A stretch of DNA of 64,000 nucleotides from the sequence record MN508614.1, one strand, 5' to 3'. The translations under genes and the position numbers were made by a program. Numbering within the stretch: position 1 is the stretch's first letter; every line of letters begins with the position of its first letter. The notes under the pieces were generated by a model that made no database searches, was not told the origin of the DNA, and was given only the letters and a program-made list of their open reading frames with translations. This document shows positions 1 to 15,031 of the stretch, piece by piece. Source of the stretch: Escherichia phage ES12.

Positions 1-2
1 AA

Positions 3-620
3 GTGGAAGCGCCAATATTCGTCGATCATGGTTATGTTGGACCAGATAGCTATTATCCAATTATTAAAGGAAGAAGTGTAATCACCAATCAAGGGTTTGT
101 AACTGCCGTCGATCTTGGTATTCGTCGTGTCAATAACAATTGGGGACAAGCAATTATTCGTGTTGGATCTGCGGAGGCATCGCCAGCGGCTGGACACCCT
201 AACGCGATATTTGAATTTCATTACGACGGTACTTTCTATTCTCCTGGTAATGGTAACTTTAACGATGTGTATATTCGTTCCGATGGTCGTCTTAAGATTA
301 ATAAAAAAGAGCTAGAAAACGGAGCACTTGAAAAAGTATGCCGACTGAAAGTTTATATTTACGATAAGGTTAAGTCTATTAAAGACCGTAGTGTTATTAA
401 ACGCGAAGTTGGTATTATTGCTCAGGACCTTGAAAAGGAATTACCGGAAGCTGTGTCTAAAGTTGAAGTTGATGGTTCTGATGTTCTGACAATTTCTAAC
501 TCCGCTGTAAATGCTCTTTTAATTAAGGCTATCCAAGAAATGAGCGAAGAAATTAAAGAATTAAAAACGCCTTTCTTCACTAAAATTGCTCGCAAAATTA
601 GTAATTATTTTAAATTCTAA
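3..620 (+). CDS. 37: Long tail fibre distal subunit gp37, C-terminal part (5' end lies outside the window)
   Basis: ORF runs in from the window edge, directly upstream of gp38 and holin t; C-terminal region resembles a tail-fibre intramolecular-chaperone module ([16 protein letters not shown]...[11 protein letters not shown]). Confidence 0.8.
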
Positions 621-624
621 CAAC

Positions 625-641
625 AAGGGGCTTTGCCCCTT
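625..641 (+). other. Intercistronic stem-loop between genes 37 and 38
   Basis: Inverted repeat AAGGGGC/GCCCCTT with TTT loop, immediately 5' of GGAG Shine-Dalgarno and the gene 38 ATG. Confidence 0.3.
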
Positions 642-652
642 TGGAGAAAATT

Positions 653-1453
653 ATGGCAGTAGTTGGTGTTCCTGGTTGGATTGGAAGTTCATCCGTAAAT
701 GAAACAGGACAACGATGGATGAGTCAAGCGGCTGGTCAATTAAGATTGGGTATTCCTTGCTGGATGAGTCAATTTGCAGGTCGCTCAAGAGAAATTATTC
801 ACACGCTTGGAGCAGACCATAACTTCAATGGTCAATGGTTCCGAGATAGATGTTTTGAGGCAGGTAGTGCACCTATAGTGTTTAATATCACAGGAAATTT
901 GGTATCATATTCTAGAGATGTTCCTTTATTCTTCATGTATGGAGATACACCAAATGAATATGTTCAGTTGAATATTAGCGGTGGAGCTCATATGTGGGGC
1001 AGAGGTGGACAAGGTGGATGGACTCATTCTGGTGGAGATGGTAATGGTCAACAGGGTGGACATTGTATTCAAAATGACATTGGTGGTCGGTTAAGAATTA
1101 ATAATGGTGGAGTAATTTGTGGCGGAGGAGGCGGTGGCGGCGGTATCGCTTATCGTCCTCACTCTGGTGCAAACTGGCAAGATATTGGTGGCGGTGGAGG
1201 AAGACCGTTTGGCCCAGGAGGTGGCGGTGGTTATTCAGGAGGTGCTGCTTCTTATGATGGCCCAGGAGGTGGTTATAATTATGGTAATGCTCACTCTGGT
1301 CAAGGTGGCGATGCTGGAGGAAATGGACAAAATGCCTGGCATGATGGTGGTAAAGTTCTAAAAGTTGGCGCTGGCGGGGCGGCAGGTTATGCTGTAATAG
1401 GGTCTGCTCCAACATGGCAAAATGTTGGAATAATATATGGTCCAAGAGTATAA
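653..1453 (+). CDS. 38: Tail-fibre adhesin gp38, T2/T6 type with glycine-rich motifs
   Basis: N-terminus [13 protein letters not shown]...[14 protein letters not shown] then several poly-Gly blocks separated by variable segments; ATG at 653 with GGAG SD (track ORF starts at upstream TTG 641). Confidence 0.85.
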
Positions 1454-1484: not shown

Positions 1485-2141
1485 ATGACAGCACCTAGAA
1501 TATCATTTTCGCCCTCTGGTATTCTGTTTGGTGTTCTAGATCGCTTGTTCAAAGATAACGCTACCGGGAAGGTTCTTGCTTCCCGGGTAGCTGTCGTAAT
1601 TCTTTTGTTTATAATGGCGATTGTTTGGTATAGGGGAGATAGTTTCTTTGAGTACTATAAGCAATCAAAGTATGAAACATACAGTGAAATTATTGAAAAG
1701 GAAAGAAATGCACGCTTTGAATCTGTCGCCCTGGAACAACTCCAGATAGTTCATATATCATCTGAGGCAGACTTTAGTGCGGTGTATTCTTTCCGCCCTA
1801 AAAACTTAAACTATTTTGTTGATATTATAGCATATGAAGGAAAATTACCTTCAACAATAAGTGAAAAATCACTTGGAGGATATCCTGTTGATAAAACTAT
1901 GGATGAATATGCAGTTCATTTAAATGGACGTCATTATTATTCAAACTCAAAATTTGCTTTTTTACCAACTAAAAAGCCTACTCCCGAAATAAATTACATG
2001 TACAGTTGTCCATATTTTAATTTGGATAATATCTATGCTGGAACAATAACCATGTACTGGTATAGAAATGATCATATAAGTAATGACCGCCTTGAATCAA
2101 TATGTGCTCAGGCGGCCAGAATATTAGGAAGGGCTAAATAA
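1485..2141 (+). CDS. t: Holin (gpt)
   Basis: 218 aa, MTAPRISFSPSGILFGVLDRLFKDNATGKVLASR... matches remembered T4 holin T almost residue for residue; AGGAGG SD. Confidence 0.97.
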   Translation: MTAPRISFSPSGILFGVLDRLFKDNATGKVLASRVAVVILLFIMAIVWYRGDSFFEYYKQSKYETYSEIIEKERNARFESVALEQLQIVHISSEADFSAVYSFRPKNLNYFVDIIAYEGKLPSTISEKSLGGYPVDKTMDEYAVHLNGRHYYSNSKFAFLPTKKPTPEINYMYSCPYFNLDNIYAGTITMYWYRNDHISNDRLESICAQAARILGRAK

Positions 2142-2937: not shown

Positions 2938-3156
2938 TTATGTTTTGCGACTAAATTGTTCATAGTGCTGAATTACCTCTCTTAAACAATTGCATGTGAA
3001 TGAAAACTTTTTAGCTACACCACATTCAAATATATGTTCTCTTAAATCACGTGTGTCAGTATATCCCATCTCAACGATAAAATGTCTTATTAAATTTTTA
3101 TCTTTATCATTAAGAGAATTAAAATAATCAGATTTTGAATTAATTTCCCTGGCCAA
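2938..3156 (-). CDS. Hypothetical protein, 72 aa (arn-motA interval)
   Basis: Minus-strand ORF in the compact early operon between arn and motA; contains CGV...CNC cysteines. Confidence 0.5.
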   Translation of the reverse strand: MAREINSKSDYFNSLNDKDKNLIRHFIVEMGYTDTRDLREHIFECGVAKKFSFTCNCLREVIQHYEQFSRKT

Positions 3157-3436
3157 ATTGAATCACCTTCAGTTGACGTTTTAATTCTTTTATCATTTCT
3201 TCGTTCATCGCAATATAAAGATCGCGTAAAGCAGGTTTTAACATTCCATTTACTGGAGAACTAAATGGACACACATAATCTTTTCCTACGAGCTTTTTGG
3301 CGAATTCCATATTACAGAACTTAAATCCCGGCTCATTGGTATAAATTCCCCAATTAGTTGACATCATTTTATTAGCATATTCCAGTGCCTGGATTTGATT
3401 CATAATTCCATCGATTTGAAACTTTTTAATATTCAT
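3140..3436 (-). CDS. Hypothetical protein, 98 aa (arn-motA interval)
   Basis: Minus-strand ORF tightly packed with neighbours (stop/start overlaps). Confidence 0.55.
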   Translation of the reverse strand: MNIKKFQIDGIMNQIQALEYANKMMSTNWGIYTNEPGFKFCNMEFAKKLVGKDYVCPFSSPVNGMLKPALRDLYIAMNEEMIKELKRQLKVIQFGQGN

Positions 3437-3900
3437 TAGTAAAGGTCCTCAGAGTAAAGTTCTTTTTCACTACCACCACGTTCAATACGTACTTGTCCAG
3501 CGTAAGTTGCAATAATCATTGCTTCTTCACGCGTCCAATAATTACTATATTGGTCAATAAACCCTTGGTCATCATCACAAACTTGTTGAGTAACTAATTG
3601 AGGTTTAACTACATCTAAAACTTCTGCCATATCTTTAGAATAATGACGAGCACCTGGAATAATAAGAGTTCGTCCATCTTTTAATTTAAAACGGTTGGCT
3701 GCGCAAACAATTCGTCGTTGATACTTTTGGTTTTCATCCCAGTATGCAGACTGCCAGCAGATTTCAGGAACTTCTTTCAGAACATCTTCTTCCGTATAAT
3801 TAGTATAACCTGCTGATTTAAATTTTTCGGCTAAACTCTCTGGAGTCTCACGAGATAATGCAACGTTTAGCATTTCAAGTCTTTCTTCAAATGTTTTCAT
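3436..3900 (-). CDS. Hypothetical protein, 154 aa (arn-motA interval)
   Basis: Minus-strand ORF; stop/start overlap with flanking ORFs indicates translational coupling. Confidence 0.6.
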
Positions 3901-4226
3901 TTAAACCATCCTTTAATACGTTGCCATAAAGTTTTCTGTTGAGCTTTGTTAACACCAATTGAACGAATAACTGGTTGAGATTCCTGGAATTCTTTATAAT
4001 CAGCAAGGTAAATTTCGTAAGCTGCATCTGTAAATGAACTTATTGCTGCCATAAAATTATTGCGAATACCTACTGGAGCATCTTTACTTTCACGAATAAT
4101 CATGTATTTACCAGTCTTAATCTTTACAATAGTTCCAAGATAAGCTCCGTGGTACCAAATGTCCCAACCCTCTTGAGTAGGTTCTGCGCAACGACGAAGT
4201 TCATTAACAATTTCTAACTTGTTCAT
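3897..4226 (-). CDS. Hypothetical protein, 109 aa (arn-motA interval)
   Basis: Minus-strand ORF directly downstream of motA. Confidence 0.6.
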
Positions 4227-4236
4227 TATTTATTCC

Positions 4237-4872
4237 TCACAGTTCAGATGCTACAGTGATTACAGCTTCAATGTTTTCTGCCGAGCGTTTAATGTCAAGA
4301 TACACATTACCGTTTTTAGCGATTTTACATGACATTCCGATATCAGTAAATTTCTGAATATGATGTTCCATCATTTTGTATCCAAAAATTCGCATATTTC
4401 CATTATTGTTAATTTCAAAATTACGAATTCCGTGAGTGCGTTTTTCTAAAATAGCAAGATAGTTACTGCGGTAAGTTTCAACCTTTTTAAGAACAAATCC
4501 ATTTTCATCTAAAAGTTTTAGCATAAGGTCTTTATCTTCTTCCATATCGGAAGTAATCTCACGAGCTTTACGAGTTGCTCGTTTTTTCAGTAGTTCAGGA
4601 GCATTTTCCTGTGCGTATAAAGTTGCTGCATTTGAAATAATATCCTGAGCTTCACCAGTAATGATTAATCCATCACCAGATTTCTCCACCAGGCCTTTTT
4701 TAATCAATACCCCAATATTACTATTAACTACTGCGTTACCTAAATCTGGATGCACCTCACGAACTTCTGCGGCTGTAATGAAATCTTTCTTAGCAATGGT
4801 AATTAAAATCGCAGCAGTTTTTTCATTCAGAACATCGTTAGAAGCTTTGATGATGTAAGTTACTTTAGACAT
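4237..4872 (-). CDS. motA: MotA, activator of middle transcription
   Basis: 211 aa, MSKVTYIIKASNDVLNEKTAAILITIAKKDFITAAEVREV... matches remembered T4 MotA. Confidence 0.97.
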   Translation of the reverse strand: MSKVTYIIKASNDVLNEKTAAILITIAKKDFITAAEVREVHPDLGNAVVNSNIGVLIKKGLVEKSGDGLIITGEAQDIISNAATLYAQENAPELLKKRATRKAREITSDMEEDKDLMLKLLDENGFVLKKVETYRSNYLAILEKRTHGIRNFEINNNGNMRIFGYKMMEHHIQKFTDIGMSCKIAKNGNVYLDIKRSAENIEAVITVASEL

Positions 4873-4977
4873 TTTAATCTCCGTTTCAGTTCATTTATTT
4901 GATAGGTCTATAGTATCATGTTTAAAGCAGAAGTAAACACTTTTTTGCACTCTTTTTCAAGAGCTCTAATAAAGTAC

Positions 4978-5205
4978 TTACTTAATGTTCAGATTACGAA
5001 CTTCGATTTCGTCTTCATGGGCAAAATCAAACTGTTTGAATTCTGTGTCACCTTTAAATTTAAAAATCATTGTGAAGAAAGTCAGAACACCAGGTTTTTC
5101 TTCACGAACTCCACAGATATCATATTCAATACCATCTACAACCAGTTTGTTAGCAGTCAGAGCATTTTTAGCTTTAACGATTTCGTTTTCGATTTTAAAT
5201 TTCAT
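4978..5205 (-). CDS. Hypothetical protein, 75 aa (motA.1 position)
   Basis: ATG at 5205 with GGAG SD, immediately downstream of an early-promoter cassette. Confidence 0.6.
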   Translation of the reverse strand: MKFKIENEIVKAKNALTANKLVVDGIEYDICGVREEKPGVLTFFTMIFKFKGDTEFKQFDFAHEDEIEVRNLNIK

Positions 5206-5249
5206 TTTTTGTATCTCCGGGTTGTTTGTTTCAGTTCATTTATTTGATA

Positions 5250-5300
5250 GTTGTATAGTACCACAGTATGCTTTGGTTGTAAACCGTTTTGTGAAAAAAT
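5250..5300 (-). promoter_or_regulatory. Early sigma70 promoter cassette (GTTTAC -35, extended -10) with AT-rich UP element
   Basis: Minus-strand reading: AAAAATTTTTTCACAAAACGGTTTAC-(18 nt)-TGgTACTAT; near-identical copy at 61800-61850. Confidence 0.5.
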
Positions 5301-5307
5301 TTTTGAA

Positions 5308-5338
5308 ATAAAAAAGGGAGAGCCTCGGCTCTCCCTAA
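5308..5338 (-). terminator. Rho-independent terminator after the gene 52 unit
   Basis: GGGAGAGCC-tcgg-GGCTCTCCC hairpin followed by a U-run on the minus-strand transcript. Confidence 0.55.
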
Positions 5339-5340
5339 AA

Positions 5341-5490
5341 TTACTGCATGACTGTGATAACTGTCATGATAACACGTTGAATTCCGAACGCAAGAAGACC
5401 TCCTGCTACGGCAGGAACAACACCTAAACCCGCCAGTAAAATGCCACCAGATACTAATGCAGCGCTTGTGATACCAATGAATGGACTCAT
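5341..5490 (-). CDS. Hydrophobic microprotein, 49 aa
   Basis: Own translation: MSPFIGITSAALVSGGILLAGLGVVPAVAGGLLAFGIQRVIMTVITVMQ; its ATG overlaps the gene 52 stop (ATGA). Below the ORF-track size cutoff. Confidence 0.4.
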   Translation of the reverse strand: MSPFIGITSAALVSGGILLAGLGVVPAVAGGLLAFGIQRVIMTVITVMQ

Positions 5491-6815
5491 TTGATTTCCT
5501 CTAAATCTTTGGTGTATTCTGTAACTACATCAGTAGTTTTCCAATATTCGTTTTCTTCTTTTTTGGCTTTAGCTTCTTCAGCAAGTTTCTTTGCTTCGTC
5601 GGAAGTCATATGAAAAATATTCATTCCGACTAGTTTATCAACATAAGAAGAATACATCTCAATTTTAGAAAGTTCTTCGGTCAGTTCTTTACGAGTTTTA
5701 CCCTGCACAACAATTTCACCTGAAATTACTTTCTTAATGAAATGTGCCTTGGCAAAAGCTAAACGAAAAGCTGACTCAGTTTCTTTAATTTTATTATCAA
5801 TTCGTTTTTGGACATAAGTTTTACGAACTTCAACGAAGTCTTTGATTAAATCAACTACATTATCGTAAACTTGTAGTTTTCCTTTCTCATTAATAACCGT
5901 AATATTCTGAGAACGACGCTCAATCAACCCGAAGTCTTTCATAATTTTTGCATGGCGTTCTTCTTCGTTATCGCTCAAAGAGTATTCTTTGCGGAATTTA
6001 ACTTTGAAGCCAAAGCCATGCTCACCACAAGCATCATCCCATGTAATGAAGCCTTTATCTTCAAGCGGGTCTAAGATTTTACTCACATAAGTTTCACGAT
6101 CATACTTATATGGAATCTCAGTGATATGCATTTGAGTTCGTGAAGTAAACTTATATGTTCCACGAATTTCATATTGCCCATCAATTTCAACGACTTCACC
6201 ACGAAATTCTGGGAATTCTACCTTCGGTTTAGTTACTTTCTTTCCTTGAAGAGCTTGCAGTACAGCTTTCTTGACAGAAGAAACACTATGAGGAAGAATG
6301 TAAGTTGCATAACCAGTTGCAATACCGGAAACGCCATTAAGAAGAACAGTAGGAATAATAGGCAAATAGAAAGCAGGCGGAATGTGTTCTTTATCTTGAT
6401 GTACCGGAGCATATTCAGTATCTTTATATACGTTATAGAAATTTTTACTTACACGAGCAAAAATATAACGACTTGCTGCTGCCTTTTGGACAGTACGAGA
6501 ACCAAAGTTTCCTTGACCGTCTAACAGAGGAAAGTTATTATTCCAAGTGTTAGCCATCAAAGCACCTGCGTCTTGCGCAGAGTTTTCACCATGATGATAT
6601 CCAAGGTCCGCTACACCGCCTGCGATAGAAGCGAGTTTGTGAAACTTATCTTTATTTCCTCGTGCCAAATCAAGAGCTCGAGCAATAACAAATCGTTGAA
6701 CTGGCTTAAATCCGTCAATCATATTTGGGATAGCACGATTTTCAACCGTGTACATAGCATAAGCCAATGCTTCATTATCAATGATACTTTTTAAATCACG
6801 ATTATTCAGTTGCAT
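5487..6815 (-). CDS. 52: DNA topoisomerase II medium subunit gp52
   Basis: 442 aa, GyrA-like breakage-reunion domain; length matches T4 gp52. Confidence 0.97.
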   Translation of the reverse strand: MQLNNRDLKSIIDNEALAYAMYTVENRAIPNMIDGFKPVQRFVIARALDLARGNKDKFHKLASIAGGVADLGYHHGENSAQDAGALMANTWNNNFPLLDGQGNFGSRTVQKAAASRYIFARVSKNFYNVYKDTEYAPVHQDKEHIPPAFYLPIIPTVLLNGVSGIATGYATYILPHSVSSVKKAVLQALQGKKVTKPKVEFPEFRGEVVEIDGQYEIRGTYKFTSRTQMHITEIPYKYDRETYVSKILDPLEDKGFITWDDACGEHGFGFKVKFRKEYSLSDNEEERHAKIMKDFGLIERRSQNITVINEKGKLQVYDNVVDLIKDFVEVRKTYVQKRIDNKIKETESAFRLAFAKAHFIKKVISGEIVVQGKTRKELTEELSKIEMYSSYVDKLVGMNIFHMTSDEAKKLAEEAKAKKEENEYWKTTDVVTEYTKDLEEIK

Positions 6816-13179: not shown

Positions 13180-13212
13180 TAATTATACCACATCCTTGTG
13201 GTAAAGTAAACT
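13180..13212 (-). promoter_or_regulatory. Early sigma70 promoter for the rIIA.1-rIIA-rIIB unit
   Basis: Minus-strand GTTTAC-(18 nt)-TGgTATAAT with a perfect TATAAT -10; a near-identical copy sits at 57390-57426. Confidence 0.55.
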
Positions 13213-15031
13213 ACTGGCTCATCCATTCTTTACGAAGGTCAGCATTATCTCCCATGAGCATTTCAAAAAGCTCTTTCCAATTCTCAGGAAGTTTAACAAC
13301 ATCATATACTGGGTTTTGAATCATCTCACGATATTCAGATTTTTCCAAAGAGCCAAGTCCCTTAATATAACGGATGCTATGTTTAGGTAGAGCATCTTTA
13401 GCACTCTCATATTCAGCGACTGTATAAAACCATTCTTGTTTTTTACCGACCTGAGCGATGATTACAGGAGTTTTGACGAAGCGAATTCTTCCTTGTTCAA
13501 ACAGTTCTGGCCAATTACTAAAAAATCCGAGCAGAGAAGGATAAATGCTTCCTAGACCATCATGGTCAGCATCAGTCATAATAGCGATATTATGATAATT
13601 CAAGTTTTCAGCTTTTTCACCGAGAACTAATCCAGTGATTGCGCAAATATCAAACAGTTCTTTGTTTTTAAGCATGTCAGCATATGACATACCCCAACTG
13701 TTGAGAACTTTACCACGTAATGGATAACCACCGTGAAGTTCTTTATCACGAACATCAATAAGATATCCGATAGCCGAATCACCCTCAGTCAAGAAAAGAG
13801 TAGTATCAGCATCTTTACCACAAAGATTCGCTTTAATATGTTTATGAACCTTAGCTTTAGAAGCCTTTTTAGCTGCTTTAGTTTCTGCTGCTTTTTCTGC
13901 CGCTAATTTACGAGCCAAAGCAGCTTCAATAATCGGCATTAGAATTGCTTCATTATTTAGAATAGCACGTGAAATCTTTTTAGCATCAAGTTGAATATGA
14001 CTACGGATTTCGCCAAATGGAGAAGTCAAACGCTCTTTAGTTTGAGAATCAAATCGCATGTTTTTCATATCACGGACAAACATAACGATAGTCAAACATT
14101 CTTTAACGCGTGCTTTAGTCACATCAATTTTGAACTTACGTTTGATTTGTGGAATAAGGTCTTCACAAATATCATCCATAACACAGTCAATGTGATGGCC
14201 ACCATTCTTAGTGTGAATGTTATTCACATAAGTTAATTGACGAAAACCATCCGGTGAACGACCAACCGCAATAGAGCAATTTTCTTGTTCTTGAACAATA
14301 GCATGCTCATCATATTGGCGTGCATATTTCTTAAAATTGCCCTGAACCTTTTTACCATTAAAGGTAAATTGAATATCAGGATAAACTACTGCAAGTGTCT
14401 GGAGACGATCTAGTGTAATGTCAAGATAAACTTGGGACAGCTCATTAGTTTCAAATGACATAAAATCAGGAATGAAAGTAACACGAGTTCCTTTCCATTT
14501 TCCAGGAATAGTTTCCCATGATTTATTTTCCATGCCATTTGAACAACGAACTACAATATTATTTTGACCATCACCAGTTTCACCAACAAACATCACAGAA
14601 AAAATGTTTGTCAAACTAGAACCAACACCATTCATACCGCCAGTGACACGTTCTTTATCATCGCCAAAGTTACCACCTGCTTTTGGAATAGTCCATGCAG
14701 CAACAGGACCAGGAATTTCTTCACCGGTAGGTGTTTTAACCATCGCCTGCGGAATACCACGACCGTTATCTTCAACTGTTACTTGATTGTTTTTAATAGT
14801 AACATTAATTTTATTTGCGAATTTAAACTTAGTACGAATACCTTCATCTACTGAGTTATCGATAATTTCATCAATAAGCTTAACAAGACCAGGTACATAC
14901 TGAACACTTTCCCATTTACCAAACAGAAAGCGCTCATGCATTTCATTAGCAGAAGAGCCAATATACATGCCGCTACGCTTTTTGATATGTTCAATATCGC
15001 TCAGAATTTTAATTTCATTCTTAATCATCAC
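13211..15031 (-). CDS. 39: DNA topoisomerase II large subunit, unsplit gene 39 (covers T4 gp39 plus gp60)
   Basis: 606 aa continuous ORF: N-terminal GHKL ATPase and C-terminal Toprim region ending ...LMGDNADLRKEWMSQ; no intervening ORF or bypass gap. Confidence 0.95.
   Translation of the reverse strand: MMIKNEIKILSDIEHIKKRSGMYIGSSANEMHERFLFGKWESVQYVPGLVKLIDEIIDNSVDEGIRTKFKFANKINVTIKNNQVTVEDNGRGIPQAMVKTPTGEEIPGPVAAWTIPKAGGNFGDDKERVTGGMNGVGSSLTNIFSVMFVGETGDGQNNIVVRCSNGMENKSWETIPGKWKGTRVTFIPDFMSFETNELSQVYLDITLDRLQTLAVVYPDIQFTFNGKKVQGNFKKYARQYDEHAIVQEQENCSIAVGRSPDGFRQLTYVNNIHTKNGGHHIDCVMDDICEDLIPQIKRKFKIDVTKARVKECLTIVMFVRDMKNMRFDSQTKERLTSPFGEIRSHIQLDAKKISRAILNNEAILMPIIEAALARKLAAEKAAETKAAKKASKAKVHKHIKANLCGKDADTTLFLTEGDSAIGYLIDVRDKELHGGYPLRGKVLNSWGMSYADMLKNKELFDICAITGLVLGEKAENLNYHNIAIMTDADHDGLGSIYPSLLGFFSNWPELFEQGRIRFVKTPVIIAQVGKKQEWFYTVAEYESAKDALPKHSIRYIKGLGSLEKSEYREMIQNPVYDVVKLPENWKELFEMLMGDNADLRKEWMSQ

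Follow-up and report, generated by a model that had tools for sequence, protein, structure and literature searches.

[quoted passage not shown] T4 gp38 is a tail-fiber assembly chaperone and not a component of the virion. The original prediction had assigned the window gene to the glycine-rich adhesins of the T2/T6 type and not to the T4-type chaperones, an assignment that is borne out by family, domain and fold matches, as described below.

The first 25 kb of the window are 100% identical to phage ES26 (MN508618.1, positions 96352-121351; Tequatrovirus). ES26 is a sewage coliphage used in cocktails against urinary-tract Escherichia coli (PMC9127763), and its GenBank record carries no annotation. 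The 801-base gene 38 region is 100% identical at the nucleotide level to that record and 99.9% to Shigella phage ESh25, while megablast matched it to 391 phage records, 73 of them with an identity of at least 95%. The gene order in the window is 37 (with a Peptidase_S74 module)-38-t, an arrangement common to T2, T6, RB32, FL08, and ESh25. The 3′ part of gene 37 is truncated by the left end of the window and encodes the distal tip of the long-tail-fiber subunit gp37 (3..278, +; phrog_1699), followed by the C-terminal intramolecular chaperone module (279..620, +; Pfam PF13884) with its stop codon at 618-620. Gene 38 (653..1453, +) encodes an adhesin gp38 of 266 aa, which is of the T2/T6/S16 type and carries the RB32 allele according to Pfam, PDB and RB32 comparisons. 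It precedes gene t, encoding the holin (1485..2141, +; Pfam Phage_holin_T, E = 1.4e-116). The order 37-38-t is canonical and the holin gene fixes the locus.

The reading frame of gene 38 runs from an ATG at 653 to a TAA stop codon at 1451-1453, exactly the coordinates originally given for it. A Shine-Dalgarno-like GGAG (643..646, +) can be read in the sequence 6 bases 5′ of this ATG. The list of open reading frames opens the frame earlier, with a TTG codon at 641 that is in frame, but the RB32, T2, FL08, and ESh25 homologues begin at the methionine of MAV... In the T6 record (AP018814, 8711-9508 of the compared stretch), the annotation of gene 38 begins at an in-frame TTG (LEKIMAVVG...) located four codons ahead of the ATG that RB32, T2, FL08, and ESh25 use. 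This start codon has probably been called wrongly in the T6 record.

The gp38 protein matches two Pfam families, specifically GP38 (PF05268; 229.1 bits with a cut-off of 25, E = 7e-68; gp38 residues 47-266 against positions 1-218 of the 218-position profile) and Gp38_N (PF21721; 72.2 bits with a cut-off of 25, E = 3e-20; residues 1-42). The GP38 score (229 bits against a cut-off of 25) thus places the observation far beyond chance. Gp38 also matches phrog_2056, annotated as ‘tail fiber protein; host specificity’ (E = 2e-112), and two solved structures, 9V85 (PP01 gp38, receptor-binding domain; E = 7e-72) and 6F45_D (S16 gp38, full length; E = 1e-49). It aligns over its full length with at least 120 homologues, and invariant Gly, Trp, and Arg columns are seen in a 52-sequence alignment. 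Modeling with AlphaFold2 on the basis of 52 homologues gave a mean pLDDT of 85.9, with weak values solely in the N-terminal ~45 residues. A Foldseek search of the PDB with this model returned the same two structures, 9V85 (E = 2e-26) and 6F45_D (E = 2e-21, TM 0.76-0.81), and no other match below E = 2. Gene 38 of the window is thus almost certainly a T2/T6/S16-type gp38 adhesin. As modeled, the protein shows a three-domain fold with a helical attachment domain, a beta-helix and a polyglycine-II (PGII) sandwich, the latter being derived from superposition and not counted helix by helix, as DSSP does not call PGII helices. The S16 gp37-gp38 tip complex (6F45) and the PP01 receptor-binding domain (9V85) have this same three-domain fold (TM up to 0.85).

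We delimited the parts of gp38 by alignment with T2, T6, M1, FL08, AV119, FL18, Ac3, PP01, and S16 and with 52 database homologues. The N-terminal gp37-attachment domain (residues 1-46; 653..790, +) contains the Gp38_N match to residues 1-42 and three conserved tryptophans, of which W9 and W22 are invariant in the 52 homologues and W37 is at least 90% conserved. All three align with tryptophans of S16 gp38 that dock into the gp37 trimer, which offers three symmetry-related pockets for them (PMC6851490). The pLDDT of residues 1-46 is 39-67, a low value that is to be expected when the docking partner gp37 is absent from the model. The conserved central beta-helix follows (residues 47-109; 791..979, +), with predicted strands and a pLDDT of 90-96. 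In the alignments, this region corresponds to the beta-helix of 9V85 and 6F45_D, and it is 92-98% identical to RB32, FL08, SH7, and AV119 and 84% identical to T6. Residues 110-249 (980..1399, +) form the receptor-binding domain with the polyglycine sandwich and the hypervariable distal loops, as delimited by glycine content and alignments. A conserved C-terminal segment of 17 aa (residues 250-266; 1400..1450, +), which is 94-100% identical to RB32, FL08, SH7, T6, and M1, returns to the beta-helix.

Glycine makes up 71 of the 266 residues of gp38, and 57 of these glycines lie in the stretch from 110 to 250 (141 residues). Two or more glycines in a row occur 16 times, including one run of eight (157-164) and two of five (179-183 and 189-193). 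Invariant glycine columns among the 52 homologues are found at 116, 118-119, 121, 135-136, 144, 160-162, 182-183, 187, 190, and 205. In the C-terminal half of the alignment, the invariant or near-invariant columns are mostly glycines and the intervening segments are variable. The predicted layout of a conserved N-terminus followed by poly-Gly motifs with variable segments in between is therefore found in the alignments, with the N-terminal domain existing in at least two alleles. In the glycine-rich domain of S16 gp38, ten polyglycine-II helices are packed into a three-layer lattice with five hypervariable loops at its distal end (PMC6851490). S16 and PP01 gp38 share with the window protein the G8 helix and the motif GGGGGRP(F/L)G.

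The variable segments, expected to hold the host-range determinants, could be mapped as five loops (A to E), with boundaries that are transferred by alignment from PP01 9V85 and not measured on a structure of the window protein itself. Loop A (WTHSGGDGN; residues ~123-131, window 1019-1045, +) has a five-residue insertion compared to T6, T2, PP01, and S16. Loop B comprises 11 aa (residues 167-177, window 1151-1183, +), whereas loop C is shorter than in other gp38s (residues ~191-194, window 1223-1234, +). They are followed by loop D (NYGNAH; residues 209-214, window 1277-1294, +) and the 10-aa loop E (residues 229-238, window 1337-1366, +). These inter-glycine loops differ between receptor classes. 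Two open reading frames in other frames were also observed within gene 38, one of 115 aa on the reverse strand (1098-1445, -) and one of 80 aa on the forward strand (1119-1361, +). Such open frames are to be expected in GGN-rich coding sequence, and they are artefacts, not separate genes.

The open reading frame upstream of gene 38 (3..620) encodes the C-terminal 205 aa of gp37. It matches positions 803-1000 of the 1000-position profile phrog_1699, ‘long tail fiber protein distal subunit’ (E = 2e-67), and can be aligned with the C-terminal parts of T6 and ESh25 gp37. Residues 93-151 of the 205 match Peptidase_S74, the ‘chaperone of endosialidase’ (PF13884; E = 8.9e-12, 45.6 bits with a cut-off of 22), and this module also aligns with the S16 gp37 construct 6F45_A (E = 1e-4). 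The module starts at Ser93 of the fragment (window 279-281), inside a 10-aa motif, with IR-S93-D-G-R-L-K at window 279-296. The motif (Y/N)(I/V)(R/S)SDxR(L/I/V)K is kept in the gp37 proteins of T6, RB32, T2, FL08, and S16. Both the domain match and the conserved motif agree with the intramolecular-chaperone-like module that had been proposed for the gp37 C-terminus.

We take Ser93 to be the autocleavage serine, as in the intramolecular chaperones of endosialidases and T5 pb1. C-terminal processing has been reported for T2 gp37. By analogy, the tip encoded by 3..278 would presumably stay in the mature fiber and the S74 module would be cut off after trimer folding. Through the putative cleavage at Ser93, gp37 would lose 113 residues, and the tip capped by gp38 would become exposed. 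The paper on ES26 reads the ‘chaperone of endosialidase’ domain of its distal fiber as ‘putative endosialidase activity’ (PMC9127763). A Pfam search revealed no glycosidase domain in the 988-aa gp37 of the near-identical ESh25 (3002-5965 of the compared stretch), which contains only fiber trimerization domains and S74. The endosialidase or depolymerase reading of the ES26 fiber is thus unsupported, the domain in question being the S74 chaperone, and our analysis speaks against taking it as evidence of a depolymerase.

Comparison of DNA identity in 100-base bins reveals a mosaic locus. Window positions 1-600 (gp37 tip and chaperone module) are 71-98% identical to T6, whereas positions 1-500 are just 43-69% identical to RB32. 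From the start of gene 38 to about position 800, identity is 94-99% to both T6 and RB32 and 51-66% to FL08. Between about 800 and 1400, the sequence tracks RB32 and FL08 (83-97%) and not T6 (49-77%). At the protein level, 45 of the 46 N-terminal residues of gp38 are identical to T6, compared to 59% for FL08. The attachment domain has at least two alleles, which are 52-59% identical: one is found in T6, RB32, M1, and ES26 and the other, which is closer to S16, in FL08, SH7, and AV119. The locus thus combines a T6-like gp37 tip, a gp38 N-terminus common to T6 and RB32, and a receptor-binding domain like that of RB32 and FL08. Such modular shuffling across conserved motifs has already been described by Trojet et al. 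(PMC3157838). A strict co-variation of the gp38 N-terminal allele with the gp37 tip was rejected, as RB32 has the N-terminus of ES26 and T6 together with a divergent gp37 tip.

The closest allele with a known receptor is that of RB32 (YP_803186.1), which is identical to the window gp38 in 259 of 266 positions (97%). The seven substitutions from the window protein to RB32 are S14A, I34V, S109G, A112V, N174K, G223A, and I260V. RB32 and RB33 gp38 share with the window protein the length of 266 aa, the T6-type N-terminal domain, all five loops (with one residue off in loop B, N174K) and the gene order 37-38-t; RB32 differs in the seven substitutions and in its gp37 tip, the window tip being T6-like. 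Over the receptor-binding domain (residues 110-249), identity is 98% to RB32, 99% to SH7, 95% to FL08, 96% to AV119, 54% to T6, and 43% to T2. RB32 requires OmpA experimentally and is sensitive to the LPS composition, and RB5 recombinants carrying only a ~400-bp segment of RB32/33 with four hypervariable segments gain the OmpA/LPS specificity (Trojet 2011; PMC3157838).

MG1655 with an ompA deletion does not support plating of FL08 and AV119, the phages that define the ‘type 1’ OmpA adhesins of broad range, for which the OmpA contacts R165, H167-A170, R181, D217, and R262 of FL08 were predicted in silico (Lutz et al., 2025; PMC12032242). These modeled contact residues are kept in the window gp38 as R168, H170, S171, G172, A173, R184, D220, and R265. 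V166 of FL08 corresponds to P169 of the window protein, a proline that is also present in RB32. Unlike the window protein, FL08 and AV119 carry the other N-terminal allele with a two-residue deletion in it. Within residues 109-266, the window protein has just two residues, S109 and I260, that neither RB32 nor FL08/AV119 shows at the corresponding position.

The near-identity to the OmpA-dependent RB32 and to the type 1 adhesins of FL08 and AV119 therefore leads us to predict OmpA, with sensitivity to the LPS core, as the primary receptor of the window/ES26 gp38, a prediction from sequence comparison that is quite probably correct. A swap of gp38, or of its distal half alone, switches a T6-like phage from Tsx to OmpA, and the single substitution Q206L in a gp38 loop switches an RB51-type gp38 from OmpF to OmpW (bioRxiv 10.64898/2026.04.02.716166). 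Given that single loop substitutions can switch porins, the near-identity is strong evidence, not proof.

The same adhesin could accordingly have been retargeted by a few loop substitutions to Tsx, OmpC, OmpF, FadL, OmpW or LPS alone, which we consider unlikely. The Q206L switch speaks for such a retargeting, and type 1 OmpA adhesins are phylogenetically near Tsx binders (PMC12032242). Moreover, the window protein has N174 in loop B where RB32 has a lysine, and it shows five differences from FL08 in or near the loops (P169V, D202V, G203A, N209Q, and H230S, from window to FL08). However, N174 also occurs in FL08 and AV119, which depend on OmpA, and at all five positions that differ from FL08 the window protein has the residue of RB32. 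The two residues that are unique to the window protein are located at the edge of the receptor-binding domain (S109) and in the conserved tail (I260).

The established binders of other receptors are also more distant. T6 gp38 (Tsx-binding) shares with the window protein the attachment domain, the gp37 tip with its S74 module and the conserved glycine-rich scaffold, but its receptor-binding domain is just 54% identical and all five loops differ, including the insertion in loop A (WTHSG...) and the shorter loop C of the window protein. The receptor-binding domain of T2 gp38 (OmpF/FadL) is 43% identical, and every loop differs from those of the OmpC binders PP01 and S16 (~62% and 43% identity, respectively, in the fold alignments).

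OmpA thus remains the preferred prediction. The OmpA-binding gp38 adhesins are polyphyletic, M1 and FL18 binding OmpA with quite different loops, and M1 gp38 was therefore set aside as similarity support for this prediction. K3 and Ox2, which had been suggested for the comparison, were absent among the at least 120 homologues listed and were not found in the phage genome collection; the RB32 record (with its own note ‘similar to Ox2, T6, M1’) and the M1 sequence (P0045) served as stand-ins. No receptor data for ES26 were found in the literature, including PMC9127763, and no useful ones for KIT03. RB32 and RB33 are absent from the main text of the receptor-screen preprint of 2026.

The window/ES26 combination of a T6-type gp37 tip and attachment domain with an RB32-type receptor domain, having N174 as in FL08 and P169, D202, G203, N209, and H230 as in RB32, might conceivably confer a range of OmpA variants or an extra receptor unlike those of RB32 and FL08. 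We regard this as very unlikely. If true, ES26 would represent a natural ‘hybrid-loop’ allele that is useful to map the loop residues setting the breadth of OmpA alleles.

A T4-type gp38, a fiber-assembly chaperone outside the virion that leaves receptor binding to gp37 itself, can be dismissed with near certainty. The window gene has in common with T4 gene 38 its name and its place between genes 37 and t only. BLASTP against T4 gp38 (NC_000866) gave E = 0.72 without a real alignment, so that the T4-type chaperones are not its closest homologues. T4 gp38 lacks both a Pfam GP38 match and the glycine-rich motifs, and the T4 gp37 tip consists of Collar and fiber-repeat domains and not of an S74 module as in the window gp37. 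The window protein, in contrast, matches solved adhesins by sequence and fold. Just as remote is the reading of the glycine-rich frame as an artefact of base composition or as a pseudogene in decay: GGN-rich DNA does keep other frames open, such as the 115-aa reverse-strand frame at 1098..1445, but the gene 38 frame is intact and of full length with a ribosome-binding site, recurs with 100% identity in ES26, a therapeutic phage that is viable and propagated, and yields a confident model and an end-to-end alignment with at least 120 homologues and conserved Gly, Trp, and Arg columns, a conservation that refutes this reading.

For the T2/T6/S16-type adhesin, we propose the following mechanism. 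Each long tail fiber would end in a gp38 monomer that caps the gp37 trimer. The C-terminal S74 intramolecular chaperone would fold the gp37 trimer and then be removed, upon which the three-helix N-terminal domain of gp38 (residues 1-46, with W9, W22, and W37) would plug into the end of the gp37 beta-helix, a mode of attachment that we infer. The central beta-helix of gp38 would bear the three-layer polyglycine-II sandwich made of the conserved glycine-rich motifs, and the host range would be set by the variable loops at the distal end of this sandwich, through their contact with extracellular loops on an outer-membrane protein. For the RB32/‘type 1’ allele, this protein is predicted to be OmpA as the primary receptor, and plating is likely to be sensitive to the LPS-core composition as well.

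Gene 38 of the window encodes a classic T2-type gp38 adhesin, with an allele of the RB32/OmpA class, and is nothing new in itself. The gene family, the fold, the modular evolution and the receptor of the allele class have all been published, the near-identical RB32 allele was characterized in 2011 (PMC3157838), and the sequence is in GenBank. The practical value lies in the annotation of the unannotated ES26 record and in guidance for cocktail design. The label RB32-type, probably OmpA-directed, predicts that resistance is likely to arise via ompA loss or loop variation and via LPS-core changes, and it helps to pick cocktail partners with other receptors.

Between the stop codon of gene 37 and the ribosome-binding site of gene 38, we observed a GC-rich hairpin with a 6-bp stem (AGGGGC-TTT-GCCCCT; window 626-640). 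Its stability is not significantly above that of shuffled sequences (z = -1.69; 13 of 200 shuffles as stable), and it has no T-run and was not called by the terminator scan. The missing T-run and the ordinary stability rule it out as a canonical terminator. A promoter and terminator scan of positions 1-2600 gave counts that are not above those of shuffled controls. Across the whole 64 kb, ARAGORN predicted no tRNA genes and no Rfam family was matched at the gathering threshold. Further downstream in the window, at 13211-15031 (-), a single open reading frame of 606 aa occupies the place of the gene annotated in relatives as the large subunit of DNA topoisomerase. The single frame suggests that gene 39 may be unsplit, like that of T2/T6-like phages, in contrast to the split genes 39 and 60 of T4.
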